Shown: positions 1 through 25,425 of the stretch, in pieces
How positions within the stretch are numbered: the stretch's first letter is position 1
Layout: the number at the start of each line of letters is the position of its first letter
IMG/VR virus record: IMGVR_UViG_2724679059_000002
Span: 1-41,111 of that record
Strand: one strand, 5' to 3'
Source: a virus
Lineage: Duplodnaviria; Heunggongvirae; Uroviricota; Caudoviricetes
DNA length: 41,111 nt
Translations under genes and position numbers: made by a program
Notes under the pieces: generated by a model
Databases searched by the model: none
What the model was told of the DNA's origin: nothing
What the model saw: only the letters and a program-made list of their open reading frames with translations

Positions 1-516
1 ATGAAATTTAAAAAATGTCTTCTGCCTGTGGCAATGTTAGCGTCATTCACTCTGGCAGGATGCCAGTCAAATGCTGACGATCATGCCGCCGATGTTTATC
101 AAACCGATCAACTGAATACCAAACAAGAAACTAAAACCGTTAATATTATTTCCATTCTTCCCGCAAAAGTTGCCGTAGACAACTCCCAAAATAAACGGAA
201 CGCACAAGCCTTCGGCGCGCTTATTGGCGCAGTCGCTGGCGGTGTTATCGGCCACAACGTCGGTTCTGGCAGCAATTCCGGAACGACGGCAGGGGCAGTT
301 GGCGGCGGAGCTGTAGGCGCGGCAGTGGGTTCTATGGTGAATGATAAAACCTTAGTGGAAGGTGTTTCTTTAACATATAAGGAAGGCACCAAAGTGTATA
401 CCTCTACCCAGGTGGGTAAAGAGTGCCAGTTTACGACAGGTTTAGCCGTTGTTATTACCACAACGTATAACGAAACGCGTATTCAGCCAAATACTAAATG
501 TCCTGAAAAGAGCTAA
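1..516 (+). CDS. Lipoprotein with glycine-zipper domain (YcfJ / Rick_17kDa_Anti-like)
   Basis: Signal peptide with lipobox LAGC; Gly/Ala-rich zipper GALIGAVAGGVIGHNVG resembling YcfJ/SlyB family. Lies outside the phage lysis cassette and is followed by a second signal-peptide gene. Confidence 0.6.
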   Translation: MKFKKCLLPVAMLASFTLAGCQSNADDHAADVYQTDQLNTKQETKTVNIISILPAKVAVDNSQNKRNAQAFGALIGAVAGGVIGHNVGSGSNSGTTAGAVGGGAVGAAVGSMVNDKTLVEGVSLTYKEGTKVYTSTQVGKECQFTTGLAVVITTTYNETRIQPNTKCPEKS

Positions 517-522
517 TAATCA

Positions 523-1070
523 GGAGGAGTCATGAAGAAAGTTTTTCTTTGCGCCATCTTGGCCTCCTTAAGCTATCCGGCTATCGCCTCATCATGCAGG
601 ATCAACTCTCTGCTGTAGCAGAAGCTGAACAGCAAGGTAAAAATGAAGAGCAAAGGCAGCATGACGAATGGGTCGCGGAGCGCAACAGGGAAATCCAGCA
701 AGAGAAGCAACGTCGCGCAAATGCCCAGGCCGCCGCTAACAAAAGAGCGGCAACGGCAGCGGCAAATAAGAAAGCTCGTCAGGATAAACTGGACGCCGAA
801 GCCTCTGCGGACAAAAAACGCGATCAAAGTTATGAAGATGAGCTACGCAGCTTAGAGATTCAGAAACAAAAACTGGCGCTGGCAAAAGAAGAAGCCCGCG
901 TTAAGCGCGAAAACGAATTTATCGATCAGGAACTGAAGCACAAAGCTGCGCAAACCGATGTGGTGCAATCTGAAGCTGACGCCAACAGAAATATGACTGA
1001 AGGCGGTCGCGATCTGATGAAAAGCGTGGGCAAAGCAGAAGAGAACAAATCGGAAAGCTGGTTTAATTAA
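523..1070 (+). pseudogene. Secreted coiled-coil protein, apparent frameshift between signal peptide and body
   Basis: ATG at 523 with strong RBS (aggagg) encodes signal peptide MKKVFLCAILASLSYPAIA, then stops after 28 codons; the long Lys/Glu/Ala/Gln-rich ORF continues in another frame (track ORF 549..1070). Confidence 0.4.
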
Positions 1071-1100
1071 TCGATGTTAGTAACTTCAAGCCCATGATTC

Positions 1101-1135
1101 TTGAAGATAAAAAACCCTCTGTAGTAACAGAGGGT
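1101..1135. terminator. Bidirectional intrinsic terminator
   Basis: aaaaaccctctg-tagtaa-cagagggtttt: 7-bp GC-rich stem flanked by A-tract and T-tract; separates host-like genes from the phage lysis cassette. Confidence 0.6.
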
Positions 1136-1287
1136 TTTGTTCATTCATAGTGCAGGGTCAAATCATTCCCACTCAATTATTTACGGAAACCATAACCAAT
1201 TGAGTGATAACACTTTTCCAAATCTCAATTTTCCTCGTACCGTTTTATATACCGTCACAGGAAATCAGTACCATGAAAAATGCCATA

Positions 1288-1770
1288 CTATCTGGTCAGG
1301 GTGTCGTACTGTTTTTCACAGACTCTTCCGGCTTCGGCTGCCCGGTCAGCATACTCTGCCAGTTGTCTGTTTCTCTCGAGAGATTTGCTGAGCACGTCGG
1401 CAAGCAAAACTCCGGTGTCTGCGGCTGACGTCCCAGCGCCGACAATGGCGTTATACTGCCTGAGCTGCTCACGGATGGCAAAGAGTTGTTGCTGCAACCG
1501 GCCAGCGCGAGCGGCGGCATCAAGAGCATCATTGCGCGCCTGGTCGATCCTCTGCTGAGCTTCACGTTCATTGGTCACTTTCTCCTGTTCGTAGTACTGA
1601 CGAACTTTGTCTTCTTCGTCTTTGCGGTCTTCTTCCGCCTGCGCATACCCGGCATCGTACTGGCGGCTGCCGTGTATATTCCAAGCAACCACTCCGACGA
1701 TGAACAGAGCAGCAAGCATCAACACGATAAGCATCTGTTTCCAGTATGCTTTTACGAATACCCAGATCAT
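1288..1770 (-). CDS. Rz-like i-spanin
   Basis: N-terminal TM segment then charged coiled-coil periplasmic region; last gene of the lysis cassette after the endolysin; contains an embedded lipoprotein ORF. Confidence 0.65.
1296..1532 (-). CDS. Rz1-like o-spanin (lipoprotein) embedded in Rz in the +1 frame
   Basis: Track ORF 1296..1571 contains [13 protein letters not shown] lipobox and a Pro/Ser-rich body; start assigned to internal ATG at 1532. Confidence 0.55.
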   Translation of the reverse strand: MMLLMPPLALAGCSNNSLPSVSSSGSITPLSALGRQPQTPEFCLPTCSANLSRETDNWQSMLTGQPKPEESVKNSTTP

Positions 1771-2396
1771 ACAGCCAGCACCTTACTGGCAGTGACGTAC
1801 CGCGCGCGCCGGTCGTCGATGCCATTCCTGCCACCATTGATAATCAGAGTTACACGTGCAATATCGCCGGTATACTTCATGCAACCTTTGCTGGAGAAGA
1901 ACCACGCCGCGCTACGAGCAGCGTATTCGTCCTGCGCCAACAGTTCAGGATTCTCCAGCAGGTCAACTTTCAGACCGTTTCCACAGTCACGATAGTTATT
2001 CAAACCGGTAATCTGGATAAGCCCGCGCCCACGGTAATTCCAGCCATCACCATGGGCATTGTTCCCCATGCGTTTGCTGTACACCAGATTTGCGATCGCG
2101 CGCTGGCGCTCGAGTGGCAATGGTGGTTCACCAGCACGGCGACCAAGTGCATTAGCCTGCCCCTGAGTGAGACGCCCAGCCCGAACGAAGTTAGCCAATC
2201 CGGTTACGCTGTAGTTGAAATTTTCCTGCAACCGGGTGAAGCCTCCAGACTCATGCCCGACCTGAGCAATAAACATTGCCTGATCTTCTGGTTTGCTGAT
2301 ACCAAACTCTTTCATCGCAGAAGTTATATGCGAGAACCAGCGAGCGGCCAGCGCCTCGCTAATACCAGCAGCTCGCTGGAATTGTTTAATCTCCAT
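1767..2396 (-). CDS. Endolysin, glycoside hydrolase family 19 (chitinase-like lysozyme)
   Basis: Motif [15 protein letters not shown] typical of GH19; sits between holin-like genes and Rz. Confidence 0.8.
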
Positions 2397-2694
2397 ATTT
2401 AGACCTCGTTATTTTGAAAATCTGAACGACGTTACCGCGAGTTTTAAGAACCGCAGCAAGCATGACAGCGTTGATAATGACCTCAGATAAATCCACAGCC
2501 ATTGGCGTGCGTAACCAGATTGCATAAACGACACGAACTGGAATACTCGCAGCAGCAACAATCAGGAAATAAGCAATCCACCCACCCCATCTTCGATGTT
2601 GAGATCCGTTACGCTGGAAAGTGACAACGCGAATTGCTATGCCAGTACAAATAACCGCATTGGTGATAAGTAAAAAAAGCTCATGCGTTACCAT
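2386..2694 (-). CDS. Holin/antiholin-like small membrane protein
   Basis: 102 aa with 2-3 predicted TM helices, immediately upstream of the endolysin with overlapping start/stop. Confidence 0.5.
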
Positions 2695-3097
2695 CGTCTT
2701 TTCTCCCCGGCATTAATTCGCGTGGATTATCGGAACGGTGATAGAGCCAGATACCAATACGCACAGCGACAATTGCTGACACGAATGCGCCAGCAGAGAA
2801 AACAATCCCTTTCTCAAAAGAGTCCTGTGTGATGGTAGGGATCAGGCTGGCTATGCCAATAAGAATTGATGCTGCTGGTTTGTAAAAGAGAAGGCCGCAA
2901 ATAAAGCTGAGCACTGACAGAAGAACACGACGACGGATTGGATACTCGATAGCAGAGGTAACAAAAATCACAGCTCCGGCAAGTGAGCCCAAAGCAACTT
3001 CAGGTGGAGTCCCACCAATAACCGCAGCAAGAGAACCAACAGTAAGATACTGATTTACATGATCATTGGTTATTTGAAATGACATATCAACCACCAT
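2681..3097 (-). CDS. Holin-like multi-TM membrane protein
   Basis: 138 aa, several hydrophobic helices; first gene of the lysis cassette downstream of the tail fibre. Confidence 0.5.
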   Translation of the reverse strand: MVVDMSFQITNDHVNQYLTVGSLAAVIGGTPPEVALGSLAGAVIFVTSAIEYPIRRRVLLSVLSFICGLLFYKPAASILIGIASLIPTITQDSFEKGIVFSAGAFVSAIVAVRIGIWLYHRSDNPRELMPGRKDDGNA

Positions 3098-3236
3098 TTA
3101 ACATTCATCAAATCTCCAGTTTCTGGTAGAACACCATCAAAACCAAACCATATATGAATTATTATGTTATAAGTAAACAACAAAATCATCATTTGTGTTT
3201 TTTAGATTGCGATTTTTAGTCGCAATCTAAAAACAA

Positions 3237-5231
3237 CTAATTAACTAATGAAGGGAATGTCGTATTAATTACAAGAACTGTTCCTGACGGATAGCTCTGA
3301 ATTGTAACTTTACCGTTTGAAAGTATATTAATGAGGGCAACCGATGAATCAGTACCTGATGGAATATAAGAAATATCATTCTTTGGTCTAAACCCTTCTG
3401 GCAATACCATAATAACTGTGCCAACAGATGTATTTCCACCTGTTAAAACAGCAGATAAAGTAACAACGCCCTCGGCTGATTTCTGATATGTTCCACTTCT
3501 TGCCTCACCTACAGACCAACCATTTTGCAATATGCCACTCATATCATACTGATTACCTCGCCATGTACTCCATGTATTCTCACTAATCCTTCCAATCCTC
3601 ATTAAGCAAACGCGAGCATTATCTGAAGAATAACCATAATTTTTTTGTACTACTATTCCGTCAACAAATCTATCAACCTGAATAACACCATCAAGAGGCC
3701 AAGAAGCATCATCAGGGTTTGTTCTCCACCATGAAGTCCCCATGTGAAAAGTATTTGGCGGATATGAGCTATTGATGAATTGTATGGAAGAACCATTGTT
3801 AGAAAAAAGGTTGCTACTCCCATTTATAACAGCACACGGTCCATAAATATATTCAAATAATAATTTATGTATCTGTGCGCTAAATGTTGAGTTTGGGTGT
3901 ATTCCCCTTCCATCGCCATAAGGGTCATCAAGCCAGTTACCAGCAGATCCTCTCGAATCCTGCCACATACCGTAAGTATCAAAAAACATACACTTATATT
4001 GTTTTGCTTTGGCTCTAAGTACGGCTGTCAGCTGCTCATACCATTTTTCATCACGTCCGTTTGGTGTGTCTGATGTTGAATTTGGAGACATGATAATAAT
4101 TGATTGCTGGGCAACTGATTTATTATTTCGTAACTTTGAAAGACCTCTATCTAAAGCATCTTTTACTTGATCCAATGTATAACCATAATATGGATCGTTA
4201 ATTCCCCATCGTAAAACAATCAAATCAGCAGCAGAAAAAACAGACCATTCATGATCAATATACCAATTACCCCATTCGTATAGAGTTTTACCTGAATGGC
4301 CTAATGATGTATTTTTTACATCAATAATTCCATACCTCTTTGCATAAAAATCAGCAATAGTTGCTGGTGGCCATAATTCAGAGTTAACACCAACAATCGT
4401 GGAGTCACCAGACCACAAAATATATGTTTTCTGTGATTTATCCACGCCATCTGCTTTTATCATCTTGCTAATAACATAATTAAGATATTGGTCACCAGTT
4501 ACAAAACGGGAACGAGGGTCAGAATACGTTGTTAGTTGAACACCTTCTGTATTAAATACACGCCCCCTGCGTTGCTCAATTTCAACACCATATTCATTTA
4601 ACAATGAAGATACAATTTCATCATCTTTCATCGTAATTACAGTTTGACCGGCTATAGATAAGTTTATGGCTTGCTGTATATTATTCCCTACAGCTCCAGT
4701 TCTTGTAATATCTGGACGCAAAGTACTATCACCACCTTCTATATACCCTTCAAGATAACTTAAAGTTACTGCATCCTGAGGGCTTTCTGGATCTTTAAGA
4801 TTTCTAATCCTGTTATTTAAAGCGTCGTACCAGTTTGCAATACTTGATGGTTTGCAAAGTGCAAGACGAAACAAGCTACGACATTGTTGAATCAGCATCG
4901 TTAGCTTATCAAACGCATCCTCATGCACCTCTGCAAAGAATTTACCCTGATTACGCAGATCTGTTTCCTGAGTAACCGGGAGCTCTCGTGATATAGAGAT
5001 CTGATAACCGTTGGCCAATGCCTTCGACAGTATTATATTACCGCCTCTATAGCCTCCCGCACCAGTGACTGCGTAATCAGTATCAAGAGCCAGCACAGTG
5101 ATATTCTCGTCAAGGTCAATCACCTGCACCACCAGATCAGATTTCTGGAAAATCCTAAAGGTATAAGGGAACGTAGTTGTAACACCGTTACCTGTATATT
5201 CGTTGTGGTCAACTTCGGTTGAGACCGTCAT
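3237..5231 (-). CDS. Tail fibre/tailspike: T7-like N-terminal adaptor domain fused to SGNH/GDSL esterase-like C-terminal domain
   Basis: N-terminus MTVSTEVDHNEYTGNGVTTTFPYTF...TDYAVT aligns by eye with T7 gp17 N-terminus; C-terminal region has WSGDST (GDS motif) and a distal DxxH-like motif (GRGIHP); C-terminal DNA looks AT-rich. Confidence 0.7.
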   Translation of the reverse strand: MTVSTEVDHNEYTGNGVTTTFPYTFRIFQKSDLVVQVIDLDENITVLALDTDYAVTGAGGYRGGNIILSKALANGYQISISRELPVTQETDLRNQGKFFAEVHEDAFDKLTMLIQQCRSLFRLALCKPSSIANWYDALNNRIRNLKDPESPQDAVTLSYLEGYIEGGDSTLRPDITRTGAVGNNIQQAINLSIAGQTVITMKDDEIVSSLLNEYGVEIEQRRGRVFNTEGVQLTTYSDPRSRFVTGDQYLNYVISKMIKADGVDKSQKTYILWSGDSTIVGVNSELWPPATIADFYAKRYGIIDVKNTSLGHSGKTLYEWGNWYIDHEWSVFSAADLIVLRWGINDPYYGYTLDQVKDALDRGLSKLRNNKSVAQQSIIIMSPNSTSDTPNGRDEKWYEQLTAVLRAKAKQYKCMFFDTYGMWQDSRGSAGNWLDDPYGDGRGIHPNSTFSAQIHKLLFEYIYGPCAVINGSSNLFSNNGSSIQFINSSYPPNTFHMGTSWWRTNPDDASWPLDGVIQVDRFVDGIVVQKNYGYSSDNARVCLMRIGRISENTWSTWRGNQYDMSGILQNGWSVGEARSGTYQKSAEGVVTLSAVLTGGNTSVGTVIMVLPEGFRPKNDISYIPSGTDSSVALINILSNGKVTIQSYPSGTVLVINTTFPSLVN

Positions 5232-5730: not shown

Positions 5731-5999
5731 ATTTACATCGCACTCCTCTTGTGCCATAGTAATCGGGCACTGGCAAAATCCAGTGCCGGGATTGGCGTCC
5801 CGATTTACTAAGTGGCGCATACCACGCCAGACGTGGTTTTTTTATGCGTTAAGCACAGCTATATCCGAATTATGGTGGGCTGGGCAGGGGTCCGAAAGGA
5901 CGCCGGTACCACTTAGGCCGGTACGCCAACCTTGTCCAGTTCACCACCAGTAATTGGCGTTGCGGTGGTGATTAAAATCACTAAGTGGAGATAACCACC

Positions 6000-24097: not shown

Positions 24098-24304
24098 TTA
24101 CTGACCAAGTAGCGTTTTACCGCTGGTATTAGCGGTTGATGTGTCGCCCTGAGAACCGGTAAGCAGCGTAGAACTACGACCAGCAGCAGCGCGACGGCGA
24201 CGAGTTTCTTCGTCGCGGGCATCAACAACGGCGGCATCCTGCTCCTGTGGTGCTGCCTGAACTTCTGGTGTTGCAGGCACTGACGGTGAGCTACCCATGC
24301 ACAT
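24098..24304 (-). CDS. Small hypothetical protein upstream of portal
   Basis: 68 aa, RBS ggag, stop overlaps the portal start region. Confidence 0.35.
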   Translation of the reverse strand: MCMGSSPSVPATPEVQAAPQEQDAAVVDARDEETRRRRAAAGRSSTLLTGSQGDTSTANTSGKTLLGQ

Positions 24305-24372
24305 ATCAATGACTCCGTACGCAATTAAATTATTACCAATTTAACCATATATGATTTATTTATCGTAGATAG

Positions 24373-24409
24373 TTGACATTTAACGCACAAATTATTACCT
24401 TTCAGGTAA
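24373..24409 (+). promoter_or_regulatory. Candidate promoter (TTGACA -35) with overlapping operator TTACC-TTTCA-GGTAA, directed toward the tRNA and moron
   Basis: Perfect TTGACA at 24373-24378; operator at 24395-24409; same architecture as the promoter at 36105-36147 and sequence similarity to 5285-5350. Confidence 0.4.
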
Positions 24410-24731
24410 CCAAAGAGTTCATTCCGGTTACTAACCTGACTGGCTTGTCGTTAAATTGAACAGGTGGAGTGAGCTTTTATTTTGAGCAGTACGGCGTATG
24501 GCACATGCTACGATAGCGGTCTGGATACGTTTAAGGGGCACCCTCCCTTGCTCGGGCAAACGAACCAGGTAGCCGGAATGTGCAAGTCGAGCGGTTTTAT
24601 TCCGCGCACGGGGATTCACCATCCCGGCGATTCGGTGTGACGCCTCGGAAGAGACGAGGGTACAACGATGAGAGCATTTATGGAGCCGCGACAAAGTGTG
24701 GCGCCTTAACAGGCTAAGTGCTCTCAGCGTT

Positions 24732-24808
24732 GTGGCATTAGCTCAGTTGGACAGAGCAACCGCCTTCTAAGCGGTTGGTCGCAGGTTCGAATCCTGCATG
24801 CCACGCCA
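24732..24808 (+). tRNA. tRNA-Arg (anticodon UCU), phage-encoded
   Basis: Full cloverleaf: acceptor GUGGCAU/AUGCCAC, D-arm gctc-agttggaca-gagc, anticodon stem accgc/gcggt with loop cuUCUaa, T-arm gcagg-ttcgaat-cctgc, discriminator G and encoded CCA; close to E. coli argU in the arms. Confidence 0.9.
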
Positions 24809-24851
24809 GAATCACGCCTAAGGACCGTGATGCCAGAAGTTCCAGGCGCTT

Positions 24852-24893
24852 GGCGGTGATAGTTTCCCTTGAAGGACTATCACCGCCCTTTTT
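24852..24893 (+). terminator. Intrinsic terminator after the tRNA
   Basis: 12-bp stem ggcggtgatagt / actatcaccgcc followed by cttttt. Confidence 0.7.
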
Positions 24894-24923
24894 ACAGCAG
24901 GACGCCATTGCGATGACTTCATG

Positions 24924-24939
24924 CTGTAAACCCGTACAG
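24924..24939. promoter_or_regulatory. Weak LexA-box-like motif
   Basis: CTGT-aaacccgt-ACAG fits CTGT-N8-ACAG but the spacer is not AT-rich. Confidence 0.25.
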
Positions 24940-24971
24940 CCACGGAAGGCATAACTCATTGCTTCCAGTTC

Positions 24972-24994
24972 GCCCGGTTCGCCGGGCATTTTTT
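24972..24994 (+). terminator. Hairpin plus U-tract 12 nt upstream of the moron start (terminator or attenuator)
   Basis: gcccgg-ttcg-ccgggc followed by attttttaagg, then RBS aggtga and ATG at 25006. Confidence 0.45.
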
Positions 24995-25005
24995 AAGGTG
25001 AGATC

Positions 25006-25425
25006 ATGAAGACAATTGATATGTTGGCTAAGTATCTAAATGAATGGCCATTAAAATATTCTCGTATCGTTCAGGCTGAAGACTGCATTTTTTATGGCGT
25101 TTTTGCTGGTAATGAAATGCATTACGAAGTAATTCAGAGTGAGGGACTGGCCGGGTTAACTCTTAGCGAAGACCATGGTACTAGCGTTACGTTCCATGAC
25201 TGGATAACAGCACAACGTTCTGAAATGGAAAAAGGCGATGTTTTTGATATTTCTCGCGCTGTTTACGCTAAAGCAAAAAGTGATAATGATTACATGAGCG
25301 AACACTTATACAACATGAAGTTACAATGCCTGCATGCGGCGCTTATTCAGAATGGGCACTTCGATAAAACAAGTGCCATCAATATTGCGGAAGCCATCAA
25401 CGCTGGATTTAATGCCATTAAGTAA
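25006..25425 (+). CDS. Moron gene of unknown function (AT-rich, opposite strand to the flanking late genes)
   Basis: 139-aa ORF with RBS aggtga; between terminase and portal on the opposite strand; flanked by terminators on both sides; no recognisable domain by eye. Confidence 0.6.
   Translation: MKTIDMLAKYLNEWPLKYSRIVQAEDCIFYGVFAGNEMHYEVIQSEGLAGLTLSEDHGTSVTFHDWITAQRSEMEKGDVFDISRAVYAKAKSDNDYMSEHLYNMKLQCLHAALIQNGHFDKTSAINIAEAINAGFNAIK

Follow-up and report, generated by a model that had tools for sequence, protein, structure and literature searches.

The window analysed here is the whole stretch of 41,111 nucleotides (nt) of the IMG/VR virus record IMGVR_UViG_2724679059_000002, a phiV10/epsilon15-like (Uetakevirus) prophage of Escherichia coli. 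Its plus strand contains, at 24488–24733, a real structured non-coding RNA of approximately 245 nt, which is one copy of a mobile family common to unrelated phage types. The initial annotation of the window had proposed a possible structured non-coding RNA or leader upstream of a tRNA at 24411–24731. Strong covariation and the lack of a coding signature support this proposal. Its extent has to be corrected: the conserved unit begins around position 24488, and the first ~80 nt are a leader restricted to one clade. Regarding the function, we tentatively favour an RNA-only processive antiterminator, analogous to the put RNA of phage HK022 but unrelated to it.

Structure and covariation of the RNA

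The element consists of a 5′ domain of approximately 175 nt, which comprises the hairpins P1, P2, P3, P4 and P5, an H-type pseudoknot and the invariant 19-nt strand GGUAGCCGGAAUGUGCAAG, and of the helix P6, which follows this domain and abuts the tRNA-Arg gene. Base pairing was assessed in two samples. Alignment A1 is a MAFFT alignment of 52 sequences below 97.5% identity, in which the 26 pairs of P1, P2, P4, the pseudoknot PK2 and P5 were counted. Sample A2, comprising 43 distinct sequences, is independent; it was collected with a different conserved block and aligned to the covariance model. In A1 96.2% of the cells are paired, compared with 30–51% when the partners are slid against each other. 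Changes on both sides of a pair occur at 12 pairs and in 109 cells, and none of the 500 shuffles reached the observed values. The same holds for A2, with 96.5% of the cells paired and both-side changes in 152 cells. The covariance model R1 detects a single copy in the window, with a score of 137.5 bits (E 1e-38). Covariation among homologues, which had been put forward as a check for the proposed RNA, is thus strong in both samples. Folding of the single sequence from the window gave z = −1.9 for either strand, which is not significant. The case for the structure rests wholly on the comparison of homologues.

Hairpin P1 (24492–24512) is formed by the strands CGGCGUAU and AUGCUACG around the invariant loop GGCAC, and its pair 24496:24508 is either G-C or A-U with zero exceptions. 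In the window P1 contains two adjacent mismatches, 24494:24510 (G·A) and 24495:24509 (C·U), both marked in the cmsearch alignment, in an otherwise intact copy. The closest relatives, L011 and L050, carry GCGCCG at this site and pair completely. P2 (24520–24569) has a variable apex and is closed by the helix of 24520–24524 with 24565–24569. Its pair 24522:24567 is U-A in 16 and C-G in 36 of the 52 sequences, and the pair 24523:24566 is G-C or A-U. The J2/3 strand GGUAGCCGGAAUGUGCAAG (24568–24586) is invariant in 52 of the 52 A1 sequences, which were gathered by searching with this block itself; copies gathered with a different block vary slightly there. The GUGC of J2/3 may pair with the GCAC of the P1 loop (PK1); both strands are invariant, so covariation is uninformative for this pairing.

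The short hairpin P3 (24591–24605) is present in every copy with unrelated sequences, some of them with C(UUCG)G tetraloops. P4 (24611–24625) pairs 24611–24614 with 24622–24625 around the loop UUCACCA and shows both-side changes in three of its four pairs. The CACC of this loop (24617–24620) forms the H-type pseudoknot PK2 with the GGUG at 24634–24637. PK2 is supported by covariation: among 83 sequences the pair 24617:24637 is C-G in 64 and A-U in 19, with no exceptions. The hairpin ggcg-attcggtgtga-cgcc of the initial annotation has to be given up, as most homologues contain CACC in place of CGCC and the GGUG pairs with the P4 loop instead. The other local hairpin that it had named is P5 (CCUCG-GAAGAGA-CGAGG, 24643–24659), in which three of the five pairs show changes on both sides (CCUGG/CCAGG, GCCGG/CCGGC and CCCGG/CCGGG).

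The proposed long-range complement of gagagc with gctctc is the core of P6 (24662–24733), a near-perfect helix of 15 base pairs (bp) in which ACAACGAUGAGAGCA (24662–24676) pairs with UGCUCUCAGCGUUGU (24719–24733) below a variable apex. P6 is found in 113 of 146 copies in several sequence versions, the differences between which are compensated, giving many compensatory variants. The native strand pairs bind with −19.6 kcal/mol, versus −16.5 kcal/mol for swapped strands. The last two bases of P6 are the first two bases of the tRNA-Arg. A mini open reading frame (ORF) of nine codons in the P6 apex (AUG at 24680) was considered and dismissed; it is out of frame in L126 and missing from the other apex types. 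Eight copies (L010, L036, L037, L065, L075, L098, L131 and L133) contain an alternative 3′ module after P5, AUCAGCCAUUCACGCUAAGCAUC...GUGCUUAGCGGGACUGGAAGAGUUACCACUUGGAGACGGUCC, and in some copies a P6-like 3′ strand is located 230–260 nt further on.

The A2 sample adds two compensatory pairs of P1 (C-G and U-A) by means of a divergent group of IMG/VR copies, group B (L161, L163, L165, L171, L172, L175, L177, L185, L187, L189, L204 and L208). In this group AGCGGCC and (G/A)ACAACCGG replace AGCGGUC and GGUAGCCGG. L171 and L204 carry an A for a G in the first strand and, matching it, a U for a C in the second one; these matched changes hint at an extra CGG:CCG helix. The long-range pairing of the 5′ strand with J2/3 suggested by RNAalifold, which excludes P1, was rejected: its columns 6–8:110–112 are broken in group B, where P1 gains the two compensatory pairs.

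No protein is recognizable in this part of the window. An 87-amino acid ORF on the minus strand and a 52-amino acid ORF on the plus strand within 24411–24731 have no Pfam or PHROG match, and no reading frame is open across the 52 homologues on either strand. The lengths of the spacers between the invariant blocks of the same 52 sequences are evenly spread over the three residues modulo 3. The absence of a conserved frame, the spacer lengths and the absence of Pfam and PHROG matches show that the element is non-coding. The initial annotation had seen no convincing ORF here, which agrees with these data, and the conserved minus-strand coding signature that would have spoken against its RNA was looked for across the homologues and not found. 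Its suggestion of an Rfam search led to no family matching the element. At the gathering thresholds of Rfam 15 only tRNA, isrK and C4 are detected in the whole window, all outside the element save for the first two tRNA bases that overlap the end of P6. At E ≤ 10 over 24200–25100 nothing is found inside 24461–24731. The element is thus undescribed in Rfam 15, and its sequence and fold are unrelated to any known example. In the searchable literature, which omits most subscription journals, neither a paper with the invariant 19-mer nor a description of such an RNA was found.

Distribution and positions of the family

Copies of the element were gathered from annotated records, from two IMG/VR scans with different conserved blocks, from one scan of GTDB species genomes and from one IMG/VR scan for the downstream terminator. 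Around the element in the window, 711 bases share 98% identity with phiV10, TL-2011b and related phages. The region 24491–24735 also shows ~83% identity to unannotated DNA in unrelated phages, the lambdoid matches being cdtI, mEp460, 2H10, Ayreon and the Stx2c- and Stx2a-converting phages. Matches over 24491–24653 are found in the phages P1, P7, D6 and SJ46 and in hundreds of P1-like plasmids, and a core of ~110 nt also matches phages of Klebsiella, Enterobacter, Salmonella and Stenotrophomonas. The GTDB scan yielded 24 loci; the titles of 22 name enterobacterial genera, those of the other two Bacillota-type metagenome bins. Among 5426 complete E. coli genomes, 1829 contain the 5′ domain, which occupies 1908 chromosomal and 547 plasmid places; the median is one per genome. 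About a third of the complete E. coli genomes are therefore carriers; P1, Stx2a- and Stx2c-converting phages and the uropathogenic E. coli strain UTI89 are included among the carriers. In 12 sampled E. coli records no RefSeq feature lies under the match in 11 cases and only a hypothetical protein in the twelfth. Each phage record contains one copy, as does the window.

The positions occupied by the element in lambdoid phages are informative. In mEp460 the cI gene ends with a terminator of its own, and locus L001 contains operator-like TTGC..GCAA repeats together with a promoter at 2398–2445. The element starts ~50 nt downstream of this promoter, and two strong terminators, the counterparts of T1 and T2 described below, precede the first early-left gene. 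The order of repressor, element and yfdP-yfdQ-yfdR-type genes is common to cdtI, Stx2a_1447, the UTI89 prophage and strain 07-4299. An annotated N gene is lacking in these four and in mEp460, the carriers examined in this respect. In the Stx2c record, which has no gene annotation, the element and T1 are both present. In mEp390 and in the Stenotrophomonas phage BUCT708 the element is located just after the repressor gene on the same strand. The slot of the element downstream of the early leftward promoter (PL) of lambdoid phages is the slot of nutL and N in lambda and of putL in HK022. There is no room for a copy at the early rightward promoter (PR) of mEp460, where cro is directly followed by the next gene.

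Outside the lambdoid phages other positions are found. In phiV10/epsilon15-like phages the element lies between an operator-bearing promoter and the tRNA-Arg gene. In phage P1 it lies inside the tRNA-tciABC-trnI-ban stretch, 14 nt after the CCA end of trnI (tRNA-Ile) and ~100 nt before ban. Phage epsilon15 itself carries a shortened copy of the 5′ domain (L004 1817–1922, 45 bits) with no tRNA there; an RNase III site is annotated in its record at locus 1723–1822 on the opposite strand, just overlapping the start of the copy.

Promoter, tRNA and terminators around the element

In the window the element and the tRNA form a small rightward unit between two leftward gene sets, one with gp3-like and portal genes and the other with the large terminase gene. 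The upstream promoter assumed by the initial annotation corresponds to a candidate promoter at 24373–24409 (+), with the −35 motif TTGACA at 24373–24378 and the palindrome TTACCTTTCAGGTAA at 24395–24409 over the −10 region. Both TTGACA and the palindrome are conserved upstream of the element in ~30 phiV10/epsilon15-like relatives. A consensus promoter scan made no call on this site. The palindrome is probably a repressor operator; in the epsilon15 record, repressor and integration host factor sites are annotated at the equivalent position. Between the promoter and the conserved element lies the clade-specific leader (24410–24487, +), which is outside the family model, is kept only in Uetakevirus-type copies and is absent from L124 and L141. 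A second promoter before P1 (TTGAAC at 24456–24461, a 16-nt spacer and TATTTT at 24478–24483) was dropped as a family feature, being confined to the clade of the window.

The tRNA downstream of the element, also seen in the initial annotation, is a tRNA-Arg with the anticodon TCT at 24732–24808 (+), detected by ARAGORN and by Rfam (tRNA, 73.3 bits). Among 131 non-redundant contexts of the family, a tRNA-Arg is located downstream in 30 and a tRNA(CAT) within 60 nt upstream in 21 (P1 type); 80 contain no real tRNA. In most of the other copies a closing stem of GUUGUGGUG, located at the end of P6, with CACCACAAC, 60–200 nt downstream, delimits a tRNA-shaped cloverleaf. This cloverleaf contains a D-like hairpin GCGCA-GGCUGA-UGCGC with compensatory variants, followed by a variable arm, and a T-like hairpin GCCGG-AGAUCAGCA-CCGGC with variants; ACCA is often encoded after the closing stem. 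It was seen at L001 2739–2870 and in L008, L016, L058, L146 and others, and the window has the tRNA-Arg at that place. In L098 a near-genuine tRNA with a 9-bp acceptor stem occupies the position of the cloverleaf. The initial annotation had considered a processed RNA co-transcribed with the tRNA; the end of P6 within the tRNA and the cloverleaf of the relatives make joint processing of the element with the tRNA plausible.

Two intrinsic terminators follow the tRNA-Arg gene. T1 (24852–24895, +) has the sequence GGCGGUGAUAG...CUAUCACCGCC CUUUUUACA and a folding energy of −22.3 kcal/mol. T2 (24972–24993, +; GCCCGGUUCGCCGGGC AUUUUUU) has a GCCCGG..CCGGGC stem and is kept in relatives. The T1 frame GGCGGU..ACCGCC CUUUUUACA follows the element in Tyrion, KpST512phi13.3, mEp460, L085, L092 and L104, and the changes in the middle of its stem are compensatory. 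T1 and T2 travel with the element between unrelated phages, their counterparts in mEp460 being located at L001 2885–3020. In the 700 nt downstream of the element terminator-like sites occur with a mean of 1.14, versus 0.57 per 700 nt elsewhere in the same loci. The ribosome-binding site of the next ORF (25006–25425, +) directly follows T2, and the ORF itself starts 13 nt after the terminator. It encodes a cargo protein of 139 amino acids that belongs to phrog_4846 (E 2e-89), of unknown function, and has no Pfam family. The promoter scan found no promoter-like site between T1 and this ORF. The cargo genes at this position differ in the relatives and encode, for example, DUF2829 or Gp49-family proteins.

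Phage SfV and some prophages contain the block of cloverleaf, T1 and T2 without the element. With the carriers of the element SfV has the cloverleaf, T1, T2 and the early-left genes in common, but a different leader RNA follows its PL. This second conserved leader of ~62 nt (AACGAACAGGCAGGACGCCCACGAAGUAGCCGCCUGGGGCAUAUGAAGUCCAGGAUGAUUCGUU) is located just after PL in SfV (L209 5528–5606, minus strand) and in 30 IMG/VR loci. It shows at least one compensatory stem change and has YCAGGAUGA in common with HK022 put. The 104 distinct regions upstream of T1 contain the element in 59 cases, the SfV-type leader in 30, both in one and neither within 1.3 kb in 14.

Possible role in antitermination and alternative functions

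In lambdoid phages the early genes are situated behind terminators, and the put RNA of HK022 acts there without any phage protein and without a tether to the polymerase (PMC9378689). For lambdoid phages without N the mechanism of early read-through is only guessed and was noted as open in 2025 (PMC12315714); the example in that paper is related through its Q protein to 2H10, which carries the element. Our tentative preference for an RNA-only antiterminator is based on the fact that the element heads early operons behind terminators in phages lacking N, for which no mechanism is known (PMC12315714), that the conserved terminators travel with it and that the window follows the same logic of promoter, element, tRNA, T1, T2 and ORF. 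The comparison with SfV, in which an alternative leader that almost never occurs together with the element occupies the same slot, adds weight to this assignment.

The steps that we infer, from transcription and processing to polymerase binding and antitermination, would be the following. The RNA would be transcribed from a repressor-controlled early promoter, would fold while being made and would bind the transcribing RNA polymerase, either alone or with host elongation factors. The polymerase would thereby become resistant to termination, read through T1 and T2 and express the genes beyond. A cut by RNase P at the tRNA or cloverleaf would free the 3′ end of the RNA, by which the effect would not necessarily be ended. 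The intervening tRNA would be no obstacle, since put acts without a tether (PMC9378689). In its broadest form the proposal is slightly more doubtful: the element would then be the first large, pseudoknotted RNA-only processive antiterminator (core of ~175 nt); it would have no relation to put, would load onto E. coli RNA polymerase and would be freed from its transcript by RNase P. Early transcription through terminators would thereby be accounted for in the many lambdoid prophages without N, including Stx2a and Stx2c phages, in P1-type plasmid prophages and in epsilon15-like phages.

Several observations weigh against antitermination. The element shows no similarity to put by model, alignment or folds, and it is single-copy, whereas HK022 possesses both putL and putR. 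Phage P1 retains the 5′ domain alone, without P6, and no terminator-like site was called within 700 nt of it. In the virulent phage SopranoGao the element comes after the lysis genes, close to the end of the record, and little follows it. The enrichment of terminators is only ~2-fold, and 35 of 137 copies lack a terminator-like site within 700 nt. Read-through of T1 and T2 cannot always depend on the element, because 14 of the 104 cloverleaf-T1-T2 contexts have neither leader; in one of them, L222, the promoter abuts the cloverleaf directly. Finally, the conserved 3′ tRNA or cloverleaf fits a released stable RNA equally well.

In mEp460, cdtI, Stx2a_1447 and the UTI89 prophage the element resembles put in being a phage RNA just downstream of PL, in a lambdoid phage without N and ahead of terminators. 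In contrast, put is ~70 nt long with two stem-loops and is present on both the PL and PR transcripts, whereas the element, with five helices and a pseudoknot in its 175-nt core and P6 in addition, is single-copy and fused to a tRNA or cloverleaf. Characteristic of put is also the binding of the β′ zinc-binding domain of RNA polymerase, with suppression of pausing and termination in the absence of protein factors. It is furthermore found in P1, in epsilon15-like phages and in one virulent phage. Homology to put was rejected: model R1 finds nothing in the PL/PR region of HK022 at E ≤ 1, and alignment and folds share only the 9-mer CATGCGTCG, with a different architecture. The SfV leader was likewise rejected as a homologue of put, only a 9-mer being shared and the stems differing. 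Like the element, this leader is placed upstream of the cloverleaf-T1-T2 block and of early-left genes of the yfdP type; in sequence the two are unrelated, and the leader is much smaller. With nutL and N of lambda the element shares the slot between the leftward operator and promoter (OL/PL) and the early-left genes ahead of terminators, a long helix in the leader and a boxA-like string, UGCUCUC / UGCUCUUU, in the 3′ strand of P6. Unlike the lambda leader, it lacks boxB, and its examined carriers lack an annotated N gene. The reading of the string as boxA was discarded. It is base-paired in P6 and its variation is compensated on the other strand, and it therefore looks structural and not like a NusB/NusE site.

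Instead of acting on the polymerase, the element may be a stable trans-acting RNA that is cut out by tRNA-processing enzymes, namely by RNase P at the downstream tRNA or cloverleaf and, in P1, by tRNA 3′ processing upstream. P6 would shield its 3′ end, and the RNA would bind a host or phage factor such as a defence nuclease, a ribosome- or tRNA-related enzyme or an RNA chaperone, T1 and T2 merely ending the gene. We consider this main alternative somewhat unlikely. It explains the linkage to tRNA or cloverleaf and the P1 copy at least as well as antitermination does. The element is flanked by tRNA-type structures (tRNA-Arg in 30 and tRNA(CAT) in 21 of the 131 contexts, otherwise usually the cloverleaf). 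The tRNA-Arg begins at 24732 within the last two pairs of P6, so that the end of P6 coincides with the tRNA 5′ end, and the cloverleaf arms of the relatives covary. P1 keeps a bare 5′ domain shortly after a tRNA CCA end, and the SopranoGao copy is at an operon end. The element also has the appearance of a self-contained, moron-like mobile cassette, whose invariant 19-nt single strand could serve as a binding or pairing surface. RNase P-defined ends next to tRNA-like structures are known from MALAT1-mascRNA in animals and from the maturation of the C4 RNA of P1 and P7. These RNAs also consist of a structured RNA directly followed by a tRNA or cloverleaf, but are unrelated to the element in sequence and biology, and cleavage of the element by RNase P is a prediction. 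By analogy, RNase P would create the 3′ end of the element and P6 could protect it. Phage T4 makes stable RNAs of unknown function, species 1 and 2, together with its tRNAs in the tRNA cluster; they too are non-coding phage RNAs co-transcribed and co-processed with phage tRNAs, but belong to a phage of another type and size and are not tied to leaders or terminators. What speaks against a trans-acting RNA is its place in lambdoid phages without N, where the cassette and two strong terminators lie between PL and the whole early-left operon. A plain terminated gene at PL would block this operon, including int and xis in SfV-type phages, and its expression is left unexplained. Moreover, no promoter of its own was detected for the window ORF, which starts 13 nt after T2. 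By kind, the element belongs either with the phage leader and antiterminator RNAs or with the tRNA-linked stable RNAs.

It is improbable that the element is a sensing leader, that is, a riboswitch or attenuator whose 5′ domain, on binding a small molecule, a tRNA or a protein, decides on termination at T1 and T2. The core is aptamer-like, being large, pseudoknotted and highly conserved with invariant unpaired nucleotides. It lies in a leader ahead of terminators, and RNAalifold gives an alternative pairing that is exclusive with P1. However, this pairing is partly broken in group B, where P1 gains support. The terminators are 120–200 nt away from the core, beyond a full tRNA or cloverleaf, and share no sequence overlap with it; the P1 core has no called terminator-like site within 700 nt, and the downstream genes are unrelated between contexts, with no common ligand logic apparent. 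Just as little credence can be given to a leader whose benefit is confined to the linked tRNA or operon RNA, for instance through obstruction of Rho loading or of RNase attack on an untranslated transcript or through help with tRNA maturation, with no effect on the polymerase at intrinsic terminators. Such a role would suit the tight linkage to tRNAs or tRNA-like structures, the placement in untranslated stretches of early transcripts, and the near-perfect P6 helix together with the RNase III site annotated in the equivalent region of epsilon15. However, 80 of the 131 contexts lack a real tRNA, the sequence invariance and the pseudoknot go far beyond the needs of a passive barrier, and the conserved terminators are left unexplained. 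That the element is no RNA feature at all but a small protein gene or a DNA site (an operator, recombination site or single-strand initiation signal, for example) is hardly conceivable. In favour of it, hypothetical proteins are annotated across the element in public records (mEp460_037 and mEp460_036 in JQ182728, Tyrion gp54 in KX231829 and WP_001702255 on P1-like plasmids), and in P1 the element adjoins the DnaB-type helicase gene ban. Strand and frame of the annotated ORFs differ from record to record, no frame is open in the homologues, the indels are not multiples of three and there is no Pfam or PHROG match, and these annotations are probably spurious calls. G-U intermediates, which pair on the plus strand only, are among the compensatory changes; some P3 loops are UUCG tetraloops, and the orientation of the element is always that of local transcription.

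If the element is an antiterminator, the question of how lambdoid phages without N, other than HK022, pass their early terminators becomes directly testable. It would then represent a second, structurally unrelated route by which RNA alone can reprogramme bacterial RNA polymerase, and a possible control point for the induction of Shiga-toxin phages. If it is a trans-acting RNA instead, it would be a phage RNA of wide distribution and unknown target that matures by an unusual, tRNA-dependent design. For genome annotation, the spurious ORF calls across the element should cease.

A further pair of non-coding RNAs is encoded elsewhere in the window. At 5767–5951 (+) Rfam detects isrK (68.3 bits) and, immediately after it, a C4 antisense RNA (66 bits), the c4 immunity arrangement of the P1/P7 type, found here in a phiV10/epsilon15-like prophage.

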